Positions 6,197 through 19,992 of a stretch of DNA of 20,500 nucleotides are shown here, in pieces. How positions within the stretch are numbered: position 1 is the first letter of the stretch; every line of letters begins with the position of its first letter. Under the pieces are notes generated by a model, which did no database searches, had not been told where the DNA came from, and saw only the letters and a program-made list of their open reading frames with translations. Source of the DNA: a virus (Duplodnaviria; Heunggongvirae; Uroviricota; Caudoviricetes); the IMG/VR virus record IMGVR_UViG_2778261532_000014. The stretch is one strand, 5' to 3'. Both the position numbers and the translations under genes were made by a program.

Positions 6197-7021
6197 TCAG
6201 GCGGTGAAAGTACCAATAAAGGTTTCTACTTTGCTGTCTTTGAATTTCTCAACAAGCAGATCACGAAATTCGTTAGCCATTTCTTCCTGCACCGCCTCCA
6301 GCTGAATAATGCGCAGAACCAGTACAGGACGATCGCCAGTGATAATGCTGAGGCGTAATTTAAATGGACGTTCTTTCAGACCTTCAAACGGAACGCATTT
6401 AAATTCAAATGCCACTGGCATAATATCTTTGGTTTTCGCTTCGACAGACTCCATCAGGGAGCGTTTGCCGCTGAAGTCATTATCTTCAAAATCAGCGGTC
6501 TGGTTTGCTTCAATCGTGATTTTACGGACAGCCGCAGCCGCTTTTGTTGCCTGAATAGCGTCACCATTAGCATCAAAGCCCACAAGGTAGTCGGCCCAGT
6601 CTTCAATCCATTCTGCCAGTGACTTCTGGGAATGACGCTCGCTATTAACAGACAACAGAGCAGAGAACGGTGCTGTCTTTTTCAGTTTGAGAGTGGCGGT
6701 GTTATCTGCGTGACCTGGTTCATCAATAGTACCCAGGTTAAGCACACTGACGGCTCGCATATTATCGGCATCGATAAAGCAGCGGGTGCCTTCATCTGCA
6801 AGATCTTTAGAATAACGGGTAAAGTCATCGATGCTGGCAGTGGAAAGCGCACCACGGAAACGGAAGCGATTTAAATTAAATTTTTCCAGATCATGAATGC
6901 GGAAATTCTCAGGCAATGCCACAGCATCGGCACCAATCTTACTGATAATTTCATTAACACCCTGAGCAGAAATAAGAGCATGGATTTGATTAATTGCGGT
7001 TGCGTCTAAGTTCTGAGACAT
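6197..7021 (-). CDS. yfdQ: YfdQ family protein (DUF2303), prophage early protein
   Basis: 274-aa ORF, same length and operon position as CPS-53 YfdQ; GAGGA RBS; coherent codon usage. Confidence 0.75.
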
Positions 7022-7086
7022 AATAAGTCCTCACTATATAAAGATATTCAGTGATGAGATAAATAATCAGTTAATTAAGAACGATA

Positions 7087-7449
7087 TTAATGACCTGCTG
7101 CGCGAAGTTTTCCGTCAGGTTCACCGGCAAGAGTCAGTAATTGTCCCTGGTCTTCCTGCAGAATAGTCAGGCGCCCACCGCGATTGACATACATCGGCGT
7201 TTCGGTGGTGTCTTCTTCAGAAATTTTCCCGCGGTTAGTCGGGCGAACATATGAGAGTTTGTGTTTGATTTTCACACGGTTCTCATCAAACGGTTCGATT
7301 TCCAGGTTGAGCGAGACCTTACCTTTGGTTTTCGTGTTCATCACACCGGAAGCGACTTCACTGAGAACAGCGCCGATTTTGGTTTCAAATACGCCGCCGT
7401 CCAGCTCCCCGATAAATGCCTGCACATCAGTACTGCGTTCGCTAGCCAT
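7087..7449 (-). CDS. Hypothetical phage protein (yfdP-like position), 120 aa
   Basis: Start placed at ATG 7449 preceded by GGAGCAGGAAA RBS; the 197-aa upstream extension in the ORF track is Arg/Ser/Cys/Pro-rich and crosses a long inverted repeat, so judged non-coding. Confidence 0.7.
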   Translation of the reverse strand: MASERSTDVQAFIGELDGGVFETKIGAVLSEVASGVMNTKTKGKVSLNLEIEPFDENRVKIKHKLSYVRPTNRGKISEEDTTETPMYVNRGGRLTILQEDQGQLLTLAGEPDGKLRAAGH

Positions 7450-7497
7450 TTTCCTGCTCCTCATCATATCGACCCTGCAAGGCCGATTAGTTTCTCC

Positions 7498-7586
7498 ACA
7501 AAACAGAGAAGAACACCTGCGGTGACTGCCGCCCGGATGGATTGGGTTATGAGCCCGTCGTCCGGTGATGCTCTTCTCTGTTTTGT
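7498..7586. repeat. Long inverted repeat (15-bp perfect arms, 59-nt spacer)
   Basis: acaaaacagagaaga (7498-7512) pairs with tcttctctgttttgt (7572-7586); lies in the non-coding tract between the leftward operon and cI. Confidence 0.5.
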
Positions 7587-8045
7587 AAAAAGAGCGGTAC
7601 CAGCTGGAAGCAAGGGTACAAACTGGTACCGCCAAAGCAGTGGCTGTTGTGGTGGGGTTGTCACTCAGGCGTATGGTCAACCTGACAATCCGGTGTCCTC
7701 AACGGGGAAAGAGTAACCCCGCCATACTTACCGCCGCGCCATTTCGCGGATTACCACAACGCTGAGAGCACTTAGCCAGTTACGGCACCACACTTTGTCG
7801 CGGCTCCATAAATGCCCTCATCGTTGCACCCTGGTCTCTTCCCAGGCGTCAAACCGAATCGCCACGCTGGTTAGGCGTCTTATCAGCATCATCATTGACT
7901 TGCACATTCCGGCTACCTGGTTTGTTTGCCCGAGCAAGGAGTGGATTGTCCCCTTTAACGTCACCAGACCGCTAACGACGCATGTGCCATACGCCGTGTT
8001 ACAACCAAATTTTGTTTTAATCTTGCCTGTGTCATGTTTCTTTTG

Positions 8046-8060
8046 GATACATTATGTATC
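8046..8060. promoter_or_regulatory. Candidate left operator (OL-like) palindrome
   Basis: GATACAttaTGTATC palindrome followed by GGGTACATTGTCAAG; shares TACA/TGTA and GGTACA half-sites with the cI-cro intergenic palindrome. Confidence 0.4.
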
Positions 8061-8081
8061 TCATGGGTACATTGTCAAGCA

Positions 8082-8105
8082 TAAAAAAACCTGCCGAAGC
8101 AGGTT
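8082..8105 (-). terminator. Rho-independent terminator downstream of cI
   Basis: On minus strand: 6-bp stem (acctgc/gcaggt) with cgaa loop followed by TTTTTTT (plus-strand A-run 8083-8089); 13 nt after the cI stop. Confidence 0.65.
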
Positions 8106-8117
8106 CATAAATATTGA

Positions 8118-8792
8118 TTAGGCCTTTATTGTGTATCTTCTTGGTTTTCCCGAGAAAATCACTGTACCAATTATAGAGCAATTACCGTTAATCTTAATGT
8201 AAGGCTCAGGCCAGTTTGGGTTTAATGCTTTGAGATAACGCTGTGTTCCATCTTCTATCAACCGCTTGAAGGTGGTTTCGCCTGAATCGTGCATCAATGC
8301 AATAACGTCGTCACCGTGGCAGGCAGGGACTTCAGGATCTACAAAAATCATGTCTCCCGGGCGGTACTCATCAATCATTGAATCACCAATCACCCGCAAG
8401 ATATAAGTCATTTCGCCACAGGGTACAGGGCAGGGATAAGTTTCTGCTGTGCTCAAATCAACCTCAGAATAGCCAACTTCTTTCCATGCTCCGGCCTGTA
8501 CCCATGATATGACAGGGACTAACGTTATTTGTTTGTTAGTAATTGAAACATCAGGTTTTTTTGTGATGTTTGTTGTCTGGTGTTCTTGATCAAGCCATCC
8601 GACAGGCAGGTCGAAACATTTTTCGATGTGCCGTGCCATGCTGTCACCGATATTTTTAGTAGCACCATCTCCCATAAACCTGCTGGTCTGGGTTGGCTCG
8701 CGATCAATCATGGTGGCAAAGGAAGAATTCCCGCCAACACCATCTCTCAGTTTTCTGGCGTTAGACCGCCGGATGTCATGGACTGTTTTCAT
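8118..8792 (-). CDS. CI-like phage repressor (N-terminal HTH, C-terminal S24 LexA-like autopeptidase domain)
   Basis: 224-aa ORF; C-terminal GDSM (Ser nucleophile) and downstream Lys typical of S24 peptidases; divergent from cro. Confidence 0.9.
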   Translation of the reverse strand: MKTVHDIRRSNARKLRDGVGGNSSFATMIDREPTQTSRFMGDGATKNIGDSMARHIEKCFDLPVGWLDQEHQTTNITKKPDVSITNKQITLVPVISWVQAGAWKEVGYSEVDLSTAETYPCPVPCGEMTYILRVIGDSMIDEYRPGDMIFVDPEVPACHGDDVIALMHDSGETTFKRLIEDGTQRYLKALNPNWPEPYIKINGNCSIIGTVIFSGKPRRYTIKA

Positions 8793-8882
8793 AACGAAAT
8801 TAAAACCTTTGTACCGATAGGGTACAAGTATCTTGAAGGTTCATCTCAATCATGTAATATGTATATCGGAGGTACATATTGT
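8793..8882. promoter_or_regulatory. Divergent cI/cro promoter-operator region (OR-like)
   Basis: 90-bp intergenic between divergent starts; palindrome TTGTACC-gatag-GGTACAA at 8809-8827 and related TACAtatTGTA element abutting the cro start. Confidence 0.6.
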
Positions 8883-9083
8883 ATGAAAGCGTATTGGGAC
8901 TCTTTAACCAAAGAACAGCAGGGCGAGTTGGCCGTAAAAGTTGGCTCAACACCAGGCTACTTACGGCTGGTTTTCAATGGTTATAAAAAAGCCAGTTTTG
9001 TGCTGGCTAAAAAACTTGAGCAATGCACGTCAGGTGCAATTACGAAATCTGACTTAAGACCGGATATCTATCCGAAAGATTAA
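8883..9083 (+). CDS. Cro-like HTH regulator
   Basis: 66-aa ORF from ATG 8883 preceded by GGAGG; the 167-aa ORF in the track is an upstream extension antisense to cI. Confidence 0.75.
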   Translation: MKAYWDSLTKEQQGELAVKVGSTPGYLRLVFNGYKKASFVLAKKLEQCTSGAITKSDLRPDIYPKD

Positions 9084-9114: not shown

Positions 9115-9678
9115 ATGAGGCTAACCGTGGGTAAGCATCACTGGAAAGTAGAAAAACAGCCTGAGTGGTACGTGAAAGCTGTCAGAAAAACTATCGCGGC
9201 GTTGCCGGGAGGTTACGCTGAAGCTGCTGAGTGGCTGGATGTAACAGAGAACGCTTTATTCAACCGCCTTCGTGCAGATGGCGATCAGATTTTCCCGCTG
9301 GGATGGGCAATGATTTTACAGCGCGCGGCTGGCACTCACTACATTGCGGATGCTGTCGCACAGTCTGCTGATGGGGTGTTTGTATCGCTTCCTGAACTTG
9401 AGGAAGTAGAGAACGCCGATATAAACCAGCGCCTGCTGGAAGTCATCGAACAGATCGGGAGTTACTCAAAGCAGATTCGTTCGGCAATCGAAGATGGGGT
9501 AGTGGAGCCACACGAGCAGACAGCAATTAATGATGAGTTGTATCTGTCAATTTCGAAGCTCCAGGAGCATGCAGCACTGGTCTACAAAATCTTTTGCGCT
9601 CCAGAAAAGAGTGACGCCCGCGAGTGTGCAGCTCCGGGCGTCGTGGCGTTTTGTGTCTGTGGAGAAACTAACGCATGA
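9115..9678 (+). CDS. CII-like phage regulatory protein (CP76/YdaT-like)
   Basis: 187-aa ORF directly after cro; N-terminal region resembles CII-family proteins by recollection; weak RBS; start uncertain. Confidence 0.55.
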   Translation: MRLTVGKHHWKVEKQPEWYVKAVRKTIAALPGGYAEAAEWLDVTENALFNRLRADGDQIFPLGWAMILQRAAGTHYIADAVAQSADGVFVSLPELEEVENADINQRLLEVIEQIGSYSKQIRSAIEDGVVEPHEQTAINDELYLSISKLQEHAALVYKIFCAPEKSDARECAAPGVVAFCVCGETNA

Positions 9679-10511
9679 ACAGTTTAACGGCAAATAACCG
9701 TTTGTCGCAACAGCTGGTGGTCAGTGTCGCTGAACACCTGTTGTTACGGCATGAATGCAGATTACCAAATCACCTGGCTGTAAGTAACCACAGAGAACTT
9801 TACCTGACTGTGGGGGGCGAGTTGTGCAGGAACTTAACCGCTGGTTTCGTGACGGAAGAGGGCTTTATGTCCATGTTATTCGTTGGGAGCCAGAAACACA
9901 GCGCGTTATCTATCTTCGCAAAGACTACCCGCATGAGTGCTTTAGTCCTTTGTGGAAATTCAGGCGTGATTTTGTTGAGTGTGAAGGACCACCAGCACAT
10001 TGATTCTGCCATTCCGGGACGTTACACTGTTCAGGCACCTTATAAAGCGGGTGCCGGGATTGGCGTCCTGGAAATGTTATCGGCGATATATGACGCGCCA
10101 GCGTCTTTTTTATCGTCTGCGTCTGCGCACCCCCAAATTATGGTGGGCTGGACGGGGGCACCGAAAGGTGCGCCGGTTTCCGATAACGCCGGTTACGCCA
10201 ACCCCGTTCAGTTCACCACCAGCGAAATTGGCGTTTCCGGTGGTGAAGGTAATTCACTGTTATCGGAGGCTGTCATCATGGCTACTGTCCCAGCCCTCAC
10301 TCGTCTGAATGATGAAGACTTACATAAACTCAGTTATGTAACAACTGCACTACGTGCTCTGCGCAAGGTAACTCTTTCGGATCCGCAGGCGCATCAGGTT
10401 CTGGTAGAAACCCTTCTTAACTTGCAGGCTGAACGTATTCGTCTGGCGGATAAGGCTAATTTTCATATTCACCGTCTCCTGAATATCAGCGGAGGGCATC
10501 GTCATGCTTAA
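9675..10511 (+). CDS. Hypothetical protein(s); reading frame ambiguous in the first third
   Basis: 278-aa open frame with ATGA and ATGCTTAA overlaps at both ends; region 10010-10511 has clear coding periodicity; a protein-like alternative frame exists at 9788-10003 next to a G6 run (see findings). Confidence 0.45.
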   Translation: MNSLTANNRLSQQLVVSVAEHLLLRHECRLPNHLAVSNHRELYLTVGGELCRNLTAGFVTEEGFMSMLFVGSQKHSALSIFAKTTRMSALVLCGNSGVILLSVKDHQHIDSAIPGRYTVQAPYKAGAGIGVLEMLSAIYDAPASFLSSASAHPQIMVGWTGAPKGAPVSDNAGYANPVQFTTSEIGVSGGEGNSLLSEAVIMATVPALTRLNDEDLHKLSYVTTALRALRKVTLSDPQAHQVLVETLLNLQAERIRLADKANFHIHRLLNISGGHRHA

Positions 10512-18096: not shown

Positions 18097-18172
18097 GGCC
18101 CTTTAGCTCAGTGGTTAGAGCGAGCGACTCATAATCGCCAGGTCGCTGGTTCAAATCCAGCAAGGGCCACCA
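18097..18172 (+). tRNA. tRNA-Ile2 (anticodon CAU; ileX/ileZ-like; Met not excluded)
   Basis: 76 nt; perfect 7-bp acceptor stem, D-arm GCTC/GAGC, anticodon loop CTCATAA, T-arm GCTGG-TTCAAAT-CCAGC, encoded CCA; close to E. coli ileX as recalled. Confidence 0.85.
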
Positions 18173-18174
18173 TT

Positions 18175-18251
18175 CCGCCACCAGCTCATCTGGATAGAGC
18201 ATCAGCCTTCTAAGTTGATTGTGCGAGGTTCGAGCACCCGGTGGCGGACCA
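18175..18251 (+). tRNA. tRNA-Arg (anticodon UCU, AGA-decoding) with imperfect T-stem
   Basis: 77 nt; perfect acceptor stem CCGCCAC/GTGGCGG, canonical D-arm, anticodon loop CTTCTAA, encoded CCA; T-stem has two mismatches including position 53-61. Confidence 0.6.
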
Positions 18252-19746: not shown

Positions 19747-19992
19747 AAAGTGCACGTCTTGTGCTGGCTGCCATCCTGCTGTTTCTGGTAGTGGCAGTAG
19801 ATTTTGCCGGACGGCTGATGTCGGTTCTGGCTGATGGCGTGCTGGTAGCGATGGTGATGGTTGTTCTCTGGCCTTTACTGCGCAAATCTGAATAACACCA
19901 CACAAAAGGCATCTGTGGGTGCAGGTGTCTTTGACGGGGTGTTTTTTGGTGGGCCGCTGGTGGCTCTTTTTTATTTACAGGAGAAAAAAGGT

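Follow-up and report, generated by a model that had tools for sequence, protein, structure and literature searches.

The 668-bp tract between the cI-like repressor gene and the first early-left open reading frame (ORF) of an Escherichia coli lambdoid prophage of the SfV/cdtI/Stx2c-phage type is, on balance, likely to be the untranslated leader of the pL operon and a processed noncoding RNA (ncRNA) leader of the dicF type. The tract was analyzed within a 20,500-nucleotide (nt) stretch of viral DNA (IMG/VR record IMGVR_UViG_2778261532_000014), here called the window, of which it occupies positions 7450 to 8117. The left operator and promoter (OL/pL) and the terminator of the repressor gene take up a small part of it; the other ~570 bp are a mosaic of conserved, leftward-transcribed structured RNA modules. 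Two of these, which we call modules C and B, are RNA domains within a dicBF-type early leader and are annotated as RNA in no record examined. On the minus strand they are followed by a terminator hairpin in the position of the small RNA DicF and then by a long double-stranded stem (Table 1). Our reading builds on the observed anatomy of the tract, the homologies of its parts, their covariation, their strand, and the pairing of module B with a terminator.

Module B, a pseudoknotted domain of ~120 nt, is 89% identical over 123 nt to a sequence of the K-12 prophage Qin whose end is 8 nt from the start of dicF. The ban leader of phage P1 gives a weaker match (75% over 97 nt, E = 1.6e-10), which overlaps an annotated "dicF-like region." Across the 40 sequences of alignment A3, the module B helices are 93.4% paired, compared to 35 to 55% when the partner strands are slid out of register, and there are 23 double-change cells, a count reached in none of 500 shuffles. 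The P1 lineage carries compensatory changes in both helices of the pseudoknot (GCAUGG:CCAUGC and GUUGCCA:UGGCAAC). In Qin-type copies the closing helix contains G:U pairs, which the opposite strand would turn into A-C mismatches, and the module must therefore be read on the minus strand. Our covariance model (R1) detects a single copy in the window (144 bits), with the next best hit at 7.5 bits; a second copy, such as a pR-side twin, was not found by this model anywhere in the 20.5 kb. A tRNA-like cloverleaf was also tried for module B. Its closing stem of 7 bp agrees with such a fold, as does a D-arm-like hairpin, but the would-be T-arm is a strand of the pseudoknot and is not contiguous with the closing stem, and this candidate was rejected.

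Downstream of module B, 86 of the 87 distinct flanks contain an intrinsic terminator within about 45 to 95 nt, drawn from at least 10 unrelated hairpin sequences, and the intervening spacer varies in both length (about 20 to 60 nt) and sequence. Because nearly every flank carries a terminator and the terminators are unrelated to one another, we regard module B and its terminator as a unit in which the hairpin varies freely.

The terminator of the window lies directly 3' of the conserved domain, has a Rho-independent end, and is followed by a long stem, and its position is therefore that of DicF. Its arms (7632-7623 and 7603-7594, inverted repeat I4) are complementary at 10 of 10 positions, the U-tract covers 7593-7587, and the fold has an energy of -21.3 kcal/mol (z = -5.87). 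It shares the string UUUGGCGGUAYCAGUUU with K-12 DicF. A sequence-only reading of this DNA had expected leftward terminators and structured or small RNAs in the tract, and our predictions agree with it in placing structured RNAs and a minus-strand terminator here. The same reading took the GGTACC and GGTACA motifs for echoes of the cI-cro operator. The motifs are present at four sites, but those within 7594-7632 are the arms of the hairpin, followed by UCUUUUU, in a block common to the heteroimmune phage mEp460, and for these reasons they are not operators. The GGUACC arms recur in the leader sequences of SfV and phiNP.

DicF is complementary to ftsZ, and pairing to the translation start region of this message was looked at by eye: the window hairpin offers only AGUUU as a contiguous match, while a variant in viral contig L158 has 11 perfect pairs. 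By eye, the loop of that variant, CAGUUUCUCUCC, is perfectly antisense over 11 nt to GGAGAGAAACU in the start region of ftsZ and thereby outdoes K-12 DicF itself, and the 3' hairpins may be interchangeable carriers of seed sequences. The RNAduplex energies with ftsZ do not discriminate, since they are no different from those of shuffled sequences even for authentic DicF.

Next to the terminator is a 15-bp perfect inverted repeat (I1; ACAAAACAGAGAAGA at 7498-7512 and TCTTCTCTGTTTTGT at 7572-7586, with 59 nt between the arms) that extends to 25-nt arms at 84% complementarity. In minus-strand RNA, G:U pairs raise the stem to 21 consecutive base pairs. The stable RNA stem-loop suggested earlier for this repeat is borne out by folding, which gives -47.5 kcal/mol and z = -8.15 (none of 200 shuffles was as good), compared to z = -6.08 for the plus strand. 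The stem is retained in ST64B and phiNP with compensatory changes, as read by eye, and we predict it to be an RNase III processing site. The first early-left ORF begins shortly after the stem. We favor the ATG at 7449 as its start because of the strong ribosome-binding site (RBS) at 7462-7457 and because the same start of the coding sequence is annotated in the related phages cdtI, SfV, and mEp460. The frame itself is open for 77 codons upstream of this ATG (ORF 7087-7680, with a TTG start), through both the stem and the terminator.

Module C precedes module B on the minus strand. An exact 16-mer scan of viral contigs gathered 123 copies of it, and the 104 distinct copies with flanking sequence delimit a conserved segment of ~255 nt, beyond which conservation falls off on either side; the 16-mer occurs once in the window. 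Helices were counted on a MAFFT alignment of 25 sequences that includes diverged copies (A4). The five helices are 96.6% paired in A4, compared to 33 to 47% with the 3' partners slid. Double-change cells number 62, where shuffles give 23.8 and none of 500 reaches the observed count, and the covariation score is 0.273 against 0.130 in shuffles. A 4-bp pseudoknot between the loop YUMACCA and a downstream GGUKU is paired in all sequences, with C:G in 17 of them and A:U in 8. The 3' stem, CAACGAUGAGRGCA...UGCUCUCAGCGUUG, has an apex that is exchanged wholesale between phages (pairing by eye). At three loci (L097 at ~10583 on the minus strand, L234 [SPN9TCW], and L243 [phiNP]), an alternative apex of ~100 nt bears two T-arm-like hairpins, CUGG-UUCAAUU-CCAG and GUCCG-UUCGAUU-CGGAC, which resemble the 3' halves of tRNAs or remnants of attachment (att) sites. 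No Rfam 15 family matched module C at E values up to 5.

The string GUUG at 7757-7760 is common to the end of the module C 3' stem and to the start of the module B closing helix, GUUGUGG. As these four bases belong to both helices, the two cannot be complete in one transcript, and the overlap may be a point of alternative pairing or of processing.

Module C is found in three settings: the pL leader of lambdoid phages; P1-like phages, where it starts 1 nt past the CCA end of tRNA-Ile(CAU) (P1 trnI) and ~100 nt before ban; and Uetakeviruses of E. coli, Salmonella, Klebsiella, and Enterobacter, where it lies directly 5' of tRNA-Arg(UCU). Its orientation is that of the adjacent tRNAs in 123 of 123 copies. 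What follows the end of module C (...CAGCGUUGUGG) varies. Among distinct flanks it is module B in 23, tRNA-Arg(UCU) in another 23, and in 13 a further domain, module E, seen in SfV, ST64B, and Tyrion. The acceptor stem of the tRNA starts at the GUGG of GUUGUGG, and module E is closed by the same 7-bp GUUGUGG:CCACAAC helix as module B. At its ends, module E is similar to the interior of the RNase III stem domain that follows DicF in Qin. In phiV10 a terminator lies 43 nt past the tRNA, GGCGGUGAUGG...CUAUCACCGCC-CUUUUUAC (GGCGG...CCGCC), with the same head and tail as terminators of the DicF type, and in P1, modules B and C share one operon with three tRNA genes.

A tRNA gene, whose product is end-processed and trans-acting, can thus stand in the place of module B, and this is our main reason to prefer released stable RNAs over a leader that works purely in cis. 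By this analogy the array probably behaves as a tRNA-operon-style string of end-processed RNAs, with modules B and C probably acting in trans after release. ARAGORN and the Rfam tRNA model found no tRNA or tmRNA in 7450-8117. The window does contain tRNA genes on the plus strand (18097-18172, CAU, of Met or Ile2 type; 18175-18251, Arg-UCU; and a 92-nt Arg-UCU call at 19752-19843), and these are of the types that flank module C in P1 and the Uetakeviruses, but they lie 10 kb away in the late region.

The tract is strongly mosaic. Some part of the tract is present in 4,795 of 5,426 complete E. coli genomes, and no listed record among them annotates anything over it. The region 7400-8200 is 97.5 to 98.4% identical to Stx2c phages, phage 2H10, cdtI, and Ayreon, and a chromosomal segment of strain EC416 matches 7450-8020 at 100% identity. 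In a sensitive search, 7450-8016 resolved into blocks that occur separately in different phages (Table 1). The junctions coincide with short common strings such as GUUGUGG, which looks like a recombination joint between cassettes. In every context the element lies on the equivalent of the minus strand of the window; this sense is seen downstream of P1ban, in co-orientation with flanking tRNAs, and upstream of minus-strand terminators. Folding of the whole leader gives z = -5.7 for the minus strand and -3.6 for the plus strand, and the minus-strand RNA of 7700-8000 is G-rich, C-poor, and folded. The minus strands of ST64B (L242, 640-1500) and phiNP (L243, 570-1500) have pL leaders of ~800 to 900 nt that are apparently noncoding and highly structured and hold further modules absent from the window; they point to a wider family of early leaders built from cassettes.

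The remaining end of the tract, next to the repressor gene, is specific to immunity. The alignment with mEp460 covers 7400-8016 at 88.9% identity and stops there, while 8021-8200 has a 91.7% match in SfV, whose cI is similar, and on this basis we assign the OL/pL segment to the immunity region. The terminator of the cI-like gene begins 12 nt past its stop codon; the only Rfam match in the tract, even at E values relaxed to 5 and 10, is a weak one to STnc50 at this terminator (25.6 bits against a threshold of 55). The pL candidate, just past the 3' end of the repressor gene and directed away from it, agrees with the consensus at 11 of 12 positions and is the best promoter-like site in 7000-9000. 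In Ayreon, the equivalent positions carry annotations of a terminator and a promoter. The spacing alone would put the transcription start near 8044. Two operator-like 19-mers, 20 bp apart and 80% identical, span the promoter spacer, the -10 hexamer, and the putative start. The site at 8054-8072 differs at three positions from the perfect cI-cro palindrome TTGTACC-N5-GGTACAA (8809-8827). With up to three mismatches this palindrome occurs three times in the window against 0.65 expected, a modest statistic, as 5 of 100 shuffles also reach three; the sites are credible because of their positions over pL and in the cI-cro spacer and not because of this count. The segment 8034-8078 thus combines a promoter, repeated operator-like sites, and immunity specificity, as a lambdoid OL/pL does, and it would be expected to bind the repressor. 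The pL and OL sites anticipated for the tract by the sequence-only reading would be located here. The GATACAttaTGTATC palindrome to which that reading pointed does exist, at 8046-8060, but it is not a separate element, being the product of the abutting halves of the two 19-bp sites.

Table 1. Features of the leader tract and its neighbors, and related elements in other phages
Feature	Position	Strand	Remarks
Cro-like protein ORF	8883-9083	+	
cI-like S24 repressor ORF	8118-8792	-	
Intrinsic terminator of the cI-like repressor gene	8080..8106	-	Stem 8106..8087 and T-run; terminator scan
Predicted pL promoter	8051..8078	-	TTGACA (8078-8073), 16-nt spacer, CATAAT (8056-8051)
Tandem 19-bp operator-like sites	8054-8072; 8034-8052		ATGTATC-N5-GGTACAT; ATGTTTC-N5-GATACAT; direct repeat D2
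GGTACC/GGTACA motifs	7597-7602, 7615-7620, 7624-7629, 8067-8072		
Module C, structured RNA, ~255 nt	7757..8010	-	Conservation limits and covariation
Module C, H1	7996-7988/7984-7976	-	
Module C, H2	7972-7964/7920-7912	-	Closes variable domain
Module C, V2b	7878-7875/7867-7864	-	
Module C, pseudoknot	7872-7869/7855-7852	-	V2b loop with downstream strand
Module C, H3	7846-7842/7834-7830	-	
Module C, H4	7826-7813/7770-7757	-	Long 3' stem; pairing read by eye from alignment
Module B, pseudoknotted domain, ~120 nt	7643..7764	-	Homology to sequence 5' of dicF and covariation
Module B, P0	7760-7754/7652-7646	-	Closing helix, GUUGUGG:CCACAAC
Module B, P1 helix	7749-7745/7738-7734	-	Small hairpin
Module B, a:a'	7732-7722/7676-7668	-	GUAUGG:CCAUAC and two pairs; encloses variable hairpin
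Module B, Pc	7721-7717/7707-7703	-	
Module B, b:b'	7691-7683/7663-7655	-	GGRUUGUCA:UGACAACCC; crosses a:a'
Hairpin terminator in DicF position	7587..7636	-	UUUGGCGGUACCAG, 19-nt loop, CUGGUACCGC, UCUUUUU
Long double-stranded RNA stem	7498..7586	-	21 consecutive pairs closing a 39-nt branched apex
RBS and start codon of first early-left ORF	7447..7462	-	GAGGAG 7462-7457, ATG 7449-7447; read from sequence
First early-left ORF, orf32/sb37-like	7087-7449	-	Unknown function; PHROG 204 match
Mosaic block	7833-8010		Also in P1-like phages (about 80%)
Mosaic block	7754-7997		Also in epsilon15-like Uetakeviruses phiV10, TL-2011b (83%)
Mosaic block	7638-7760		Also in PPompW-type and Rac-like phage; weaker (75-81%, 7654-7749) in P1/P7
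Mosaic block	7450-7635		Also in SfV, SfII, SfIV; parts in ST64B, phiNP
Module E, GUUGUGGUGAAUGCGGCUCAGCGCACGCGG...GGAGGCACCCGGCACCACAAC	~2690-2830 of L006 (SfV)	-	Also in L242 (ST64B) and L235 (Tyrion); absent from window

The view that the tract lacks a convincing ORF holds: only short or start-poor ORFs overlap it, and no frame is conserved among homologues. In the module C homologues no conserved frame stays open, the core lengths running from 151 to 178 nt with all three remainders. One frame is open in most copies of module B and is broken in P1. A hidden gene of fewer than 60 residues, suggested earlier, was not found, as no small ORF is conserved and the indels are not multiples of 3. 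Neither was an N-like antiterminator: of the five early-left ORFs scanned, none carries an antiterminator label, and the first two have matches to PHROGs 204 and 210, both of unknown function. The expectation of nut-like sites also failed, with no conserved boxA or boxB in the tract. The sole boxA-like string, CGCUCUUUUUA at 7595-7585, is the tail of the terminator, and homologues have CGCCCUUUUUA or CGUCCUUUUUA in its place. Plus-strand ORFs at 7261-7716, 7640-7765, and 7795-8121 are listed as "hypothetical proteins" in relatives; they are probably spurious because they overlap the RNA modules or run antisense to orf32, cross mosaic boundaries, and are unconserved. Elsewhere in the window, Rfam places the Hfq-binding RNA isrK (10035-10111, plus strand, 63.7 bits) and a C4 antisense RNA (10136-10223, plus strand, 82.8 bits) back to back within the ORF 9675-10511 (the SfV "immunity region" or cdtI "antirepressor"), an arrangement that looks like antirepressor control of the P1 immI type in the pR operon.

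We propose the following course of events. In the lysogen, the cI-like repressor would shut off pL through the two tandem operator-like sites. Upon induction, RNA polymerase would start near 8044 and transcribe module C and then module B, beyond which lie the DicF-position terminator, the 21-bp stem, and the RBS of the first ORF. A stop at the terminator would yield a noncoding precursor of ~455 nt, from which cleavage, like that of the dicBF transcript, would release stable folded RNAs together with a DicF-like 3' fragment. In transcripts that read through, RNase III would cut in the long stem and part the ncRNA array from the downstream mRNA.

Several points weigh against this proposal. The start site, the efficiency of termination, and every cleavage in it are predictions, and action in trans is suggested by analogy from the genetic contexts. 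The Rfam DicF model (RF00039) gave no match to the terminator region, whether at its gathering score, at E ≤ 5 over 7000-8900, or at E ≤ 10 over 7560-7700. The hairpin lacks the 12-nt 5' tail of DicF and, by eye, a loop complementary to ftsZ, and it may be only a terminator. Module B alone, in a nested fold of the minus strand, is no more stable than shuffled sequences (z = -1.16), the pseudoknot being outside that model. Its covariation rests on few independent events, essentially those of the P1 lineage, and that of module C on three or four clades as independent lineages. The use of exact 16-mers to gather sequences of both modules favors conserved copies. Finally, a role in cis of module B or C, on the polymerase that transcribes it, may also be compatible with the results.

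Such a role is the substance of an explanation that we consider unlikely, though less so than the other alternatives: processive antitermination by RNA only, as with the put sites of HK022, in which module B and/or C, once transcribed, would stay bound to the polymerase, let it read through the DicF-position and later terminators, and so replace N. The scanned early-left ORFs include no N-like gene, and the modules are promoter-proximal, lying ~35 nt from the putative start here and ~36 nt from that of P1ban in P1. An intrinsic terminator of freely varying sequence just downstream of module B must be passed to express dicB, kil, ban, or orf32, and the composition and folding of the 7700-8000 RNA should make it a poor Rho substrate. 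The likeness to HK022 putL, compared by eye, however, comes to two shared 9-mers, when the chance of one exact 9-mer is estimated at about 0.15, and module B is single-copy in the window whereas HK022 has both putL and putR (PMC9378689). A further objection is that module C occurs in small Uetakevirus ncRNA/tRNA loci and, in P1, immediately behind a tRNA. The ability of a tRNA gene to occupy the position of module B fits released RNAs better than a polymerase-bound leader. That last substitution also counts against a riboswitch-like attenuator, with module B as an aptamer that senses a ligand or condition and the hairpin terminator as the platform that gates the early-left genes: module E or a tRNA can replace module B before the same kind of terminator. 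We consider this explanation improbable, even though a conserved pseudoknotted domain directly upstream of a variable terminator, as found in 86 of 87 contexts, is the usual layout of a riboswitch. By eye, no antiterminator pairing of module B with the terminator arms is kept across the window, Qin, Rac-like, and P1 versions; the spacer is inconstant in length and sequence; and Rfam found no riboswitch match.

The strongly mosaic nature of the tract, with junctions at short common strings, could be taken to mean nonfunctional debris, i.e., recombination scars and decayed gene fragments hitchhiking between phages. This is highly improbable given that the module boundaries are those of closed RNA domains, that compensatory base changes preserve the helices, that 75 to 89% identity is held between phages otherwise without common DNA (P1, epsilon15-like, and lambdoid), and that the modules always keep to one strand with respect to tRNAs, promoters, and terminators. 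Hardly any weight can be given to the idea that the whole tract serves DNA-level control, through operators at the GGTACC/GGTACA motifs and nut sites, and/or hides an N-like gene. Operator-like sites do exist at 8034-8072 and resemble the cI-cro palindrome, but the motifs at 7594-7632 form a terminator within the mEp460-aligned block, with arms that recur in SfV and phiNP, and the tract has neither a conserved ORF, as indels that are not multiples of 3 attest, nor a conserved boxA or boxB. For 7450-8016 this idea is largely refuted.

Of the known systems, the dicBF operon of Qin (ydfC-dicF-dicB, K-12) is closest to the dicF-type leader that we favor. It has the folded domain, the terminator (UUUGGCGG...CUUUUU), a ~21-bp stem, and the RBS of the next gene in the same order, runs in the direction of the adjacent repressor gene, and is transcribed from a pL-equivalent promoter. 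The Qin stem, GUGAAUUUUGUGAUGUGGUG...CACUGCAUCACAAAAUUCAU, occupies the interval from 9 nt past DicF to just short of the dicB RBS; its sequence is unrelated to that of the window stem. Qin also differs in that ydfABC (three small ORFs) and a noncoding stretch precede module B, where the window has module C and no ORF. A passage in PMC5069750, citing Faubladier et al. 1990, describes how, upon read-through of dicBF, RNase III gives a 72-nt DicF and RNase E makes its 5' end. From these lengths we infer that the end of the 72-nt form (the 53-nt form plus 19 nt) falls in the 5' arm of the Qin stem. The ban operon of P1 has both modules on the transcribed strand, with module B ~36 nt past the putative P1ban start and then a strong terminator. 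In P1, however, 2.3 kb with tRNAs and the tci genes separates the two modules, the copy of module C is missing its 3' stem H4, a long stem of the RNase III type is absent, and the terminator, GCCCAUCUUCGGGUGGGC, has no similarity to DicF.

HK022 put is a structured nascent RNA just past pL, in a lambdoid phage without N and upstream of terminators that must be passed (PMC9378689). It measures ~70 nt and forms two stem-loops in a left and right pair, while the modules of the window measure 120 and 255 nt, are pseudoknotted, and are single-copy. The modules have no significant sequence similarity to put and are also found beside tRNA genes outside early operons. Judged by sequence, size, or copy number, the tract is not a put element. 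The RNase III site of the lambda N leader and T7-type stems offer another parallel, being long near-perfect stems in an early leader just upstream of the first RBS; the stem of the window has no nutL or N beside it and no sequence similarity to them, and its cleavage is predicted. The P1/P7 C4 antisense RNA (RF01695), which is matured by RNase P, is a phage-borne folded RNA with a terminal helix that is end-processed out of a longer transcript, and the window has a C4 copy, but C4 has no sequence or model similarity to module B or C. We hypothesize that RNase P also processes module B or C, as the interchange with tRNA genes suggests.

DicF is among the oldest known bacterial small RNAs, yet it is less well conserved than the sequence immediately 5' of it. 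That upstream sequence, module B, recurs in P1, Rac-like, and SfV-type phages before quite different terminators. In the records examined it has no RNA annotation, being unannotated, covered by "hypothetical protein" ORFs, or labeled the "dicF-like region" of P1. We found no role for the sequence upstream of dicF in the papers searched; a full-text search with core 16-mers of modules B and C gave no match, and searches on DicF processing, antiterminator RNAs, and ST64B small RNAs turned up nothing specific. Module C is common to three phage groups that are otherwise unrelated, and its neighbors are always tRNA genes or promoters. A practical gain is that the "hypothetical protein" calls cdtI orf40, mEp460_036/037, and Ayreon 0036/0037 are almost certainly spurious.

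We tentatively suggest, as a bolder possibility, that modules C, B, and E are undescribed families of phage-borne structured RNAs, closed by terminal helices, interchangeable with tRNA genes and end-processed as tRNAs are, that act in trans in early infection or induction (e.g., as tRNA or protein decoys against host defense or RNases) or as an RNA-only antitermination device. If so, module B would be the functional core of the "dicF-like" sequences widespread in enterobacterial prophages, and DicF would be only one among many 3' hairpins that can replace each other. Should these RNAs prove to be processed and trans-acting, or to modify RNA polymerase, they would be a missing layer of early control in many lambdoid phages that lack N.

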